Below, piece by piece: positions 21,480-22,000 of a stretch of 64,000 nt of DNA. Each line of letters opens with the position of its first letter. Position 1 is the stretch's first letter. Position numbers and translations under genes: made by a program. The stretch lies in sequence record PQ471515.1, one strand, 5' to 3'. The notes under the pieces were generated by a model that worked only from the letters and a program-made list of their open reading frames with translations, searched no databases and was not told where the DNA came from. This stretch comes from Escherichia phage Turkey3.

Positions 21480-22000
21480 AATTTATTAATGGTGATACAA
21501 TGATCTATGTACAATCACAATGACAGTACTGGTACTGACAATCTTCCCCTACTTCACTTGAAAATGTAAAGGATAGATGAGCTTTTCATTGTAGCGAACA
21601 GCAAAAGAAACCCGTTAGATGTGGGCATAGTTTGAACCCCTCACGGCAATGCGGCTGTATAAAGAACCACGTTAGGATAGCTGGTGGTTCCTCGATAGAC
21701 ATATAAGGATAACACCTTACGAATTATCTAAGGGAGAGTTATCGAATTTTGTACAGGAAAGTTGCGTCCAAAATTTGAGTACTCACATTAAGTATTTGAT
21801 TGCATAGATACTTAATGAAGATACACTATGTTTAAAAGTGTAGACCGTCATATGAAACTGAAGTAGAGAGAAACAGGATGACCCGCTTTCGCACTCGTTA
21901 TGAGTAATCTTCAATGCAATAGCTCTGATACCATCAGCGTCAAATTTCCCTCCGTGCGGGGGGGGGAAGAAAAATCCCTTCCTCAAATCCCGTCAATATT
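21480..22000 (+). other. ORF-free region with G9 homopolymer (candidate ncRNA or cis element)
   Basis: About 520 bp without a convincing ORF, GC-richer than surroundings, GGGGGGGGG at 21958-21966. Confidence 0.3.

Follow-up and report, generated by a model that had tools for sequence, protein, structure and literature searches.

Large RNAs that conserve a complex fold are uncommon, and nearly all of the classes that are understood are fundamental (the ribosome, RNase P, transfer-messenger RNA (tmRNA), self-splicing introns and guide RNAs), while the unexplained ones, such as OLE, ROOL, GOLLD and raiA, are under active research. ROOL and GOLLD are the closest in kind to the element described here, a putative RNA gene at positions 21474-21996 of a 64,000-nucleotide stretch of Escherichia phage Turkey3 (PQ471515.1), the whole of which is called the window below. 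Like the present element, they are large stand-alone RNAs with many helices and pseudoknots, they are borne by phages, prophages or mobile islands with no obligatory neighbouring protein gene, and they are likewise RNAs of no known function. We favour, with good confidence, the explanation that 21474-21996 is as a whole an autonomous gene of a large, highly structured, trans-acting non-coding RNA. Taken separately, the existence of a real structured RNA gene is very probable, and action of its product in trans rather than in cis is reasonably likely. A structured non-coding RNA was among the candidates named in a sequence-only reading of this stretch, and it is now strongly supported by promoter conservation, by multicopy conservation across distant phages and by heavy covariation. 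The gene comprises a predicted promoter and a conserved unit:

21474-21501, + strand: RNA-gene promoter of the extended -10 sigma-70 type (GGGACA-16-TGnTACAAT; promoter scan)
21474-21479, + strand: GGGACA, the -35-like element, followed by a 16-nt spacer
21493-21494, + strand: TG of the promoter
21496-21501, + strand: TACAAT, the -10 element
21508-21996, + strand: large structured non-coding RNA, conserved unit of ~490 nt (nhmmer, alignment A1, covariation)

The 5' end of the RNA was taken from the promoter, which places the probable start at ~21508-21510, and the 3' end is that of the last conserved motif.

Within the phage collection, copies of the element are limited to RaK2-like jumbo phages. 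BLAST searches with positions 21480-22010 returned 61 jumbo-phage records (61-69 over searches) with several matching places each, and identity was still ~70% over ~450 nt in distant genera. The distant carriers include Pectobacterium phage CBB, Cronobacter phage GAP32, Serratia phage BF, the Erwinia pEa_SNUABM phages and Yersinia phage fHe-Yen9-04; Salmonella phages Munch and 7t3 and Xanthomonas phage XbC2 are further carriers. The window itself shares 99% identity with Escherichia phages fEgEco12 and vB_Ec-M-J and ~89% with 121Q, PBECO4 and G17, its close relatives being 350-380-kb RaK2-like jumbo myoviruses, of which vB_Ec-M-J, BF17 and JNE01 are classified as Asteriusvirus. A 26-nt degenerate pattern taken from the most conserved block revealed 20 more loci in IMG/VR and 22 in metagenomes, all on ~350-kb contigs or fragments. 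The nhmmer matches spanned the full length of every locus not cut short, with E-values of 1e-55 to 1e-144. Escherichia phage ECO103 4-12-1, whose genome (352 kb) was searched whole, harbors four dispersed copies in one orientation, at 18.3, 128.4, 208.2 and 261.5 kb. Identity in blocks amounts to 70-84% for the paralogs; the ortholog of the window copy in this phage reaches 95%. The window holds one copy only, as judged by BLAST at word size 7 and by a covariance model; apparent early repeats inside it proved to be the shared terminator hairpin of the sigma-factor gene, not paralogs.

These copies raise a key question: do they share an RNA fold? Alignment A1 comprises 28 non-redundant copies (<97% mutual identity, 668 columns). 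RNAalifold predicted 68 pairs on it, with compensatory double changes at 41, and a scan of all column pairs added helices that are invisible to nested-only folding. The final model contains 16 helices and 79 pairs, three pseudoknots included; at least 15 helices are conserved, in addition to a terminator-like hairpin carried by most copies but not by that of the window. Standard pairs make up 96.7% of the modelled pairs on A1, compared with 36-42% in controls. When the 3' partners were moved by 1-3 columns (slid controls), double-sided changes fell from 58 of the 79 pairs to 11-22, doubly changed cells from 403 to 25-56 and the covariation score from 0.519 to 0.06-0.08, and none of 500 shuffles reached any observed measure. 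Six copies held out of the model (Munch, Kaldavass, XbC2, EJP2, XaC1 and RaK2) retain 78-97% of the pairs, with 11-20 pairs in each changed on both sides relative to the consensus, and the RaK2 copy contributes new compensatory pairs. The compensatory changes expected of a structured non-coding RNA gene are therefore present beyond both the shuffled and the slid controls, and the structure-conservation analysis across related phages that the sequence-only reading had proposed shows a conserved fold with compensatory changes.

G-U pairs are frequent in the model (27 of 28 copies at one pair, 26 of 28 at another) and would be A-C mismatches on the opposite strand; therefore, the + strand is the functional one, and the orientation of the promoter and terminator agrees with this. 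Single-sequence folding energy was uninformative (z = -1.7 for the + strand and -2.5 for the - strand). The earlier candidate of a replication or packaging cis element fares poorly here: the constraint lies on + strand base pairing with its many G-U pairs, and a pac site would be single, not present several times per genome.

The 5' part of the fold consists of the following elements:

21517-21784, + strand: 5' domain, every helix with compensatory double changes
21517-21521 with 21588-21592, + strand: pseudoknot PKa, pairing with the loop of hairpin B
21554-21559/21569-21573, + strand: helix P2
21581-21583/21593-21595, + strand: hairpin B
21598-21602/21654-21658, + strand: helix Pc
21612-21615/21643-21646, + strand: helix Pd
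21664-21669/21685-21690, + strand: helix Pe
21704-21707/21716-21719, + strand: helix Pf
21736-21740/21780-21784, + strand: helix Pg

The 3' core follows directly:

21785-21923, + strand: 3' core (covariance model R1, pair counts)
21791-21797/21806-21812, + strand: hairpin Ph
21821-21825/21839-21843, + strand: helix Pi
21859-21863/21909-21913, + strand: helix Pj
21866-21870/21886-21890, + strand: helix Pk
21893-21895/21903-21905, + strand: helix Pl
21799-21805 (AUUGCAU, Ph loop) with 21914-21920 (AUGCAAU), + strand: pseudoknot PK1
21847-21851 (GUCAU) with 21878-21882 (AUGAC, Pk loop), + strand: pseudoknot PK2

Both pseudoknots of the core are rewritten in other members: PK1 appears as GUCGAAU/AUUCGAC, as UCAUAU/AUAUGA and, in RaK2, as CUUGAAU/AUUCAAG, and PK2 as GUUGC/GCAAC, GUUAC/GUAAC, GUUGA/UCAAC and GUUGU/ACAAC. 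Covariance model R1, built on the 3' core, finds the locus with 118.8 bits (E = 4e-25) as its sole significant match in the window. The invariant junctions of the 5' domain include GAUGAG, GAAACCCGU, CACGGCAAUGCGGC, GAUAGACAUAUAAGG and UAAGGGAG (21729-21736), and further long invariant junction stretches are GACCGU, AUAGAGAGAAAC, ACCCGCUUUCG and the CGUCA motifs described below. Invariant stretches of this kind are typical of an RNA whose tertiary fold is precise. Long-range pairs of the 3' domain with the core are possible between the GGG of UAAGGGAG and the C-arm of the 3' hairpin and between GCGG and the tail CYCGU, all of them nearly invariant; RaK2 is devoid of both the CAAUGCGG junction and the CUCGU tail, a joint absence that is suggestive only. 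A module of ~35 nt (UUUUGGUACAAGAAAGAUCCGUCCAAAAUUU and variants; A1 columns about 300-346 and 474-510) is inserted at Pg and/or Pl depending on the member, like a portable structural cassette, and in the window copy it lies in Pg (21746-21779).

Could the region instead be a decayed or frameshifted protein gene, or a gene in a non-standard code? Small hypothetical open reading frames (ORFs) are annotated across it in some records, which is what this alternative can draw on. As the sequence-only reading had stated, there is no convincing ORF between the upstream terminator and the next promoter: positions 21480-22000 contain only short overlapping frames of 67 amino acids (antisense, 21783-21986), 38 amino acids (antisense) and 44 amino acids (sense), and none of these is kept in strand, frame or length among the 28 homologous copies. 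The longest open frames vary from copy to copy in strand, frame and length (45-130 codons), indels among the copies in A1 are not multiples of three, and substitutions fall in pairs across helices and not at codon third positions. No ORF is conserved across the 28 copies, and their alignment revealed no frameshifted gene either, so that we give a protein-coding origin practically no credence.

The RNA gene stands alone, with no conserved neighbouring protein gene: the ORFs that flank the four ECO103 4-12-1 paralogs share no homologs. At two loci the synteny extends across genera. The first, directly after the sigma-factor gene, is common to the window, its relatives and Klebsiella phage RaK2, whose divergent copy scores 110.5 bits with the 3'-core covariance model. 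The second is flanked in Kaldavass by the endonuclease VII and baseplate-hub genes; the baseplate-side neighbour is the same in XbC2 and Munch, and the GAP32, CBB, Yersinia, Erwinia and Serratia phages carry a copy at the matching map position of ~174-177 kb. The RNA is antisense to the baseplate-side neighbours in all three loci fetched there, and to the genes on both sides in XbC2 and Kaldavass. Since two loci are syntenic across genera, the paralogs are old and have been individually retained.

The unit moves between genomic contexts; copies outside phages are few. Among 185,579 species genomes scanned, one full-length copy was found, in an integrative island of Citrobacter amalonaticus P55, between a large serine recombinase and a cI-like repressor, and this gene order is repeated on a metagenome contig. 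Of 5,426 complete E. coli genomes, two carry a copy, within an integrative island of ~10 kb adjoining ffs that also holds the candidate defence system PDC-M45 (DuOB, DUF488 and DUF4326 proteins). In E. coli EEC_W5 (L065, NZ_CM130020.1:236204-254786), the island occupies locus coordinates 4997-15341, the RNA copy lies at 9001-9583 in a 1.4-kb stretch without an annotated gene, and the island integrase is interrupted by IS3. The plasmid collection yielded no copy. Protein neighbours differ between the islands. A conserved partner protein was sought and rejected, as the islands share with ECO103 4-12-1 only a DUF4326 domain, which is part of the separate candidate defence system. There is likewise no shared flanking protein that would make the RNA a guide or scaffold of an adjacent nuclease or transposase (TnpB, IscB, IS110 or Cas).

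The independence from neighbours is matched by transcription signals of the element's own, which at the sequence level comprise promoter-like and terminator-like elements in addition to the unrelated flanks. In all 25 copies with enough upstream sequence, a T[GC]nTA[TC]A[AC]T motif ends 33-70 nt 5' of the conserved core, and the -35 GGGACA is present in several family copies. In the c2 paralog lineage, the -10-like motif sits 5' of a terminator-like hairpin, and the promoter assignment there is doubtful. After the folded core, 22 of the 28 non-redundant copies have their own terminator-like hairpin with U6-7, and this hairpin covaries; it has been lost, with the core intact, in three lineages (that of the window, that of the c2 paralog and one CBB copy). 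At the post-sigma locus of Escherichia virus TH47 (L072, MT446416.1:145700-147500, reverse complement), the RNA is a variant that keeps the terminator and a G5 hairpin, which points to recombination among paralogs and recent terminator loss in the lineage of the window. An ORF of ~230 amino acids lies there between the RNA promoter and the RNA, and by eye only it resembles an AP2-type homing endonuclease.

A terminator-like hairpin placed right after the core in most copies and followed by more conserved sequence is also what a cis-acting leader or attenuator would show, that is, a giant riboswitch in which the folded domain senses a signal and sets terminator read-through into the downstream genes, with the 3' C/G hairpin and tail as part of the expression platform. 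The window copy, which has no terminator before the next gene block, would fit such a role too. We nevertheless regard it as very unlikely. The genes downstream of the four paralogs are unrelated, at one conserved locus the RNA is antisense to the genes on either side, every downstream block examined has its own promoter, the island copies lie in yet other contexts, and the supposed switch itself is missing from three lineages whose core is intact. No competing terminator upstream of a conserved gene class was found among the loci compared. Manual comparison yielded no consistent antiterminator pairing, failing for the c4 and L021 copies; a pairing of Ph with the terminator was considered and rejected, as the similarity is due to a palindromic AGUACU and fails in two lineages.

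The dispersed copies suggest another cis role, that of an RNA-primed replication origin, in which the structured transcript would form a persistent R-loop anchored by the G-rich hairpin and prime the leading strand, so that the copies would be several origins of a T4-related replisome. The models are ColE1 RNA II and the T4 origin transcripts (oriF/oriG), which share with the present element a transcript of ~500 nt, a sigma-70-type promoter, a G-rich segment near the 3' end and dispersed intergenic sites; this likeness concerns mechanism, not homology. The size of RNA II, close to that of this RNA, counts in favour of the idea, as do the four copies in one orientation in a 352-kb genome, the adjacency of the G-run to a terminator or pause signal and the copy in small islands, such as a satellite exploiting the replisome of a helper phage might have. 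T4-like replication genes are present in these phages (CBB genome paper, PMC5259590). On the other hand, the RNA is far more intricate than the ColE1 and T4 primers, its three conserved pseudoknots and many invariant junctions far exceeding the needs of any known primer RNA; the length of the G-run is not conserved; the downstream sequence has no AT-rich unwinding element at a constant distance; and the E. coli island looks like a defence island, not a satellite. No antisense regulator was noticed, though no search was aimed at one. At three of the four copies, the cumulative GC skew passes without an inflection; this indirect test is uninformative or negative. An origin is therefore, in our view, very unlikely.

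The 3' end of the element contains the G tract that had first drawn attention to the region:

21931-21943, + strand: first conserved motif copy, CCAUCAGCGUCAA (family form C-AUCA-n-CGUCA-R; alignments A1 and A4)
21945-21972, + strand: conserved C/G hairpin, UUUCCCUCC-GUGC-GGGGGGGGGAAGAAA (alignment A4)
21985-21995, + strand: 3' tail motif AAAUCCCGUCA, second YCGUCA-R copy and last conserved block, sole exact match in the window

The sequence-only reading had described a G9 run at 21958-21966 flanked by CCCTCC (21948-21953) and TCCCTTCC (21975-21982) in a region richer in GC than its surroundings, and both statements agree with the sequence. The GC difference is real but modest (0.395 compared with 0.348 for the whole window, the 93rd percentile of 521-bp windows). 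G9 is the sole run of at least six G or C in the 64-kb window, where base composition predicts ~0.017 runs of at least nine. Three points escaped that reading: the promoter of the RNA itself (21474-21501), paralogs at other sites of the genome and the minor share of the tract in a larger element, G9 being the 3' arm of the C/G hairpin plus three extra G. This hairpin is two-stemmed, with the family consensus CUUCAUUCCCC-UGC-GGGGGGAUGAA, and its distal stem covaries (UUCAU/AUGAA compared with UAUC/GAUA). Among 35 copies its G run measures G5 to G7, most often G6, with G9 in the window only; among orthologs it is G9 in the window, G8 in JNE01, G7 in fEgEco12 and vB_Ec-M-J, G6 in EC.P1, BF17, 121Q and UE-S1, and G4 in CMSTMSU.

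A slippage-prone homopolymer had also been suggested, and of this the variable length (G4 to G9) stands, while the tract turns out to be merely the 3' arm of a conserved hairpin whose norm is G5-G6. Is it then a functional contingency (phase-variation) tract in an ordinary intergenic spacer? Lengths of G4, G6, G7, G8 and G9 among ~99% identical genomes, and a run of at least nine far beyond chance, are what such a tract would show. It lies, however, in neither of the places expected of a phase-variable locus, a conserved ORF or a promoter spacer, and the whole surrounding 490 nt are conserved and covarying. Over 730 bp, the window and fEgEco12 differ in three homopolymer lengths and in nothing else, the window being longer each time (C3 against C2 at 21461, T8 against T7 at 21464 and G9 against G7 at 21958-21960). 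As only homopolymer lengths differ, the two other than the G tract included, the comparison points to replication slippage or to homopolymer sequencing or assembly error rather than to a functional switch. The length of the G tract drifts without visible consequence, and a contingency role for it is highly improbable.

By their distribution, the C/G hairpin and the AAAYCYCGUCA tail are parts of the element: in the 352-kb genome of ECO103 4-12-1, the tail motif is present at each of the four RNA loci and confined to them, CCCCTGYGGGGG is found at RNA loci only (three of the four), and four of the seven G runs of at least six are these hairpins. Two mutually identical YCGUCA-R copies flank the segment composed of terminator and hairpin. 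In all of 34 sequences, the two copies agree in the base that follows CGUCA (20 G/G, 14 A/A), and RaK2 has CUUCA in both; this coupling goes by genome, not by paralog. It points to both copies being recognised together, by a trans factor or as paired processing sites, with gene conversion as the alternative. The 3' segment beyond the terminator may represent an isoform made by read-through, a substrate for processing or an element of its own. Two other readings of this segment were rejected. The tail is not a general phage promoter or UP element, as the motif is confined to RNA loci and lies at varying distances from the next promoter, and a nut-like boxA/boxB reading of the hairpin plus CCUCAACAA suffers from a poor boxA match in the wrong position.

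Several points weigh against an autonomous gene of a trans-acting RNA. Any function assigned to the RNA is conjecture; RNA-seq was found for none of the phages that carry the family, and the start, end and abundance of the RNA are all predictions from sequence. In most copies, the terminator-like hairpin lies inside the conserved unit, 5' of the C/G hairpin and tail, so that the 3' 60 nt may lie outside the mature RNA. The window copy lacks this terminator and has no other before the next promoter; its transcription may therefore run on into the downstream genes, which would fit a cis role. Finally, the structure was derived from the same alignment as most of the counts, the held-out set comprises only six copies, and the RaK2 row is partly misaligned.

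With these points in mind, we propose the following for the trans-acting RNA. It would be transcribed by the host RNA polymerase, given a promoter of host type and the position of the window copy in a block of small genes like the one in CBB that is suspected to be early (PMC5259590). The RNA would work in trans through its tertiary fold. Either it would be the subunit or scaffold of a ribonucleoprotein (RNP) whose host or phage partner is unlinked, or it would form an assembly or catalyst made of RNA alone; the multiple gene copies would supply dosage. Given action in trans, an RNP scaffold or decoy and an RNA-only assembly or ribozyme are roughly evenly balanced. A role in phage-host conflict is suggested by the presence of the RNA in a candidate-defence island, in a prophage-like island and in lytic phages. 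A bolder form of the proposal is tentative: the family might be a new class of large pseudoknotted RNA without a dedicated protein, a ribozyme or self-assembling RNA-only particle that serves as a weapon or shield between phage and host. Lytic jumbo phages would then use the RNA at high dosage, small integrative islands would likewise employ it, and processing or recognition would take place at the two identity-locked YCGUCA-R motifs on either side of the C/G hairpin.

The retention of several paralogs per genome, syntenic across genera, argues for strong selection on the RNA. The family occurs in cultivable E. coli, Klebsiella, Salmonella, Erwinia and Cronobacter phages and is thus open to genetics, probing and cryo-electron microscopy (cryo-EM), and some of the carrier phages are in development for therapy or biocontrol. 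Annotation would also gain, as the loci are now left blank or filled with spurious small hypothetical proteins.

The surroundings of the gene in the window are bounded as follows:

20471-21436, + strand: sigma-factor-like ORF, upstream neighbour of the RNA gene
21441-21471, + strand: intrinsic terminator of the sigma-factor gene (hairpin 21441-21466, T-run to 21471), upstream boundary
22009-22037, + strand: sigma-70-type promoter TTGACA-17-TAGAAT of the next gene block, downstream boundary (promoter scan)

The terminator hairpin of the sigma-factor gene (AAAGGGTTGACTTCGGTCAGCCCTTTTTTTT) is repeated near-verbatim at 41576-41603, 42960-42987 and 45720-45747 of the window, with variants at about 29898, 33508, 34295, 35872, 36556 and 40853, and looks like a stereotyped terminator cassette between small early genes. 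About 300 nt 3' of the RNA, positions 22308-23331 hold a 75-amino-acid ORF and an ORF with an HNH motif (CDCCGE...LDHN...CEDCN; gene at 22537-23331). Both are missing from the same locus of ECO103 4-12-1, which suggests a mobile homing-endonuclease insertion. Elsewhere in the window, a cluster of seven tRNA genes occupies 4716-9180, with a tRNA-Ser (7585-7676) whose anticodon is ACT according to ARAGORN and two tRNA-Thr(TGT) side by side.

How does the family compare with known RNAs? A covariance-model scan, which the sequence-only reading had also put forward, found no known RNA at the locus. At gathering thresholds, Rfam 15 recognised seven tRNAs and nothing else in the whole window, so that no Rfam 15 family claims the element, RNase P, tmRNA, group I and II introns, ROOL, GOLLD, OLE, HEARO and 6S included; at E up to 10, it placed no large-RNA family on the window copy or on nine other family loci, and the region, like those nine loci, received terminator-like small-RNA noise only. 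Searches of open-access full text turned up no description of the RNA family, and the CBB genome paper does not mention it (PMC5259590). We rate the family as an apparently new, previously undescribed class within the bounds of Rfam and the open-access literature, absence from which is no proof of novelty.

Individual resemblances to other RNAs were weighed and set aside. RNase P RNA is, like this RNA, pseudoknotted and about 400-500 nt long, and short words like those of CR-II to CR-V occur here (ACGACC.GU.GCA...AGAGAG.AAAC, CACGG.AA, AGAUGA and AGAAACCCG.U.A), by comparison with the E. coli M1 RNA sequence. The block order and helix topology differ, however, CCCGU/ACGG being nested inside Pc here, whereas P4 crosses P2 there; no RNase P model matched at E up to 10 in ten loci, and the resemblance is treated as chance. 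The order PK2-Pj-Pl is like P3-P7-P8 of group I introns, but there is no P4-P6 domain, J8/7 would be only 3 nt long and no covariance-model match was obtained. ARAGORN detected no tmRNA or tRNA-like structure at the locus. In Pseudomonas phage PA5oct, of a related jumbo-phage clade, four ORF-free 'lncRNA' regions were shown by RNA-seq to be transcribed (PMC7318152). One of them, ncRNA004 (L034, MK797984:246116-246734, 619 nt), ends in a similar C/G hairpin (GATTTCCTTCCCAAACGGGGAGGAAATC); homology was rejected, as the 3'-core model was negative on ncRNA002 and ncRNA004 and nhmmer matched the hairpin only (E = 0.006).

ROOL and GOLLD thus remain the closest in kind, with clear differences. The present family has no sequence or covariance-model similarity to either and is not a member of either, and inspection by eye revealed no conserved palindromic loop. 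The property that defines ROOL and GOLLD is the formation of symmetric RNA-only homo-oligomers, seen by cryo-EM (PMC12286853). ROOL and GOLLD come from Firmicutes and from rumen and lake metagenomes, while the present family belongs to enterobacterial jumbo myoviruses and, unlike them, is carried as several paralogs per genome.

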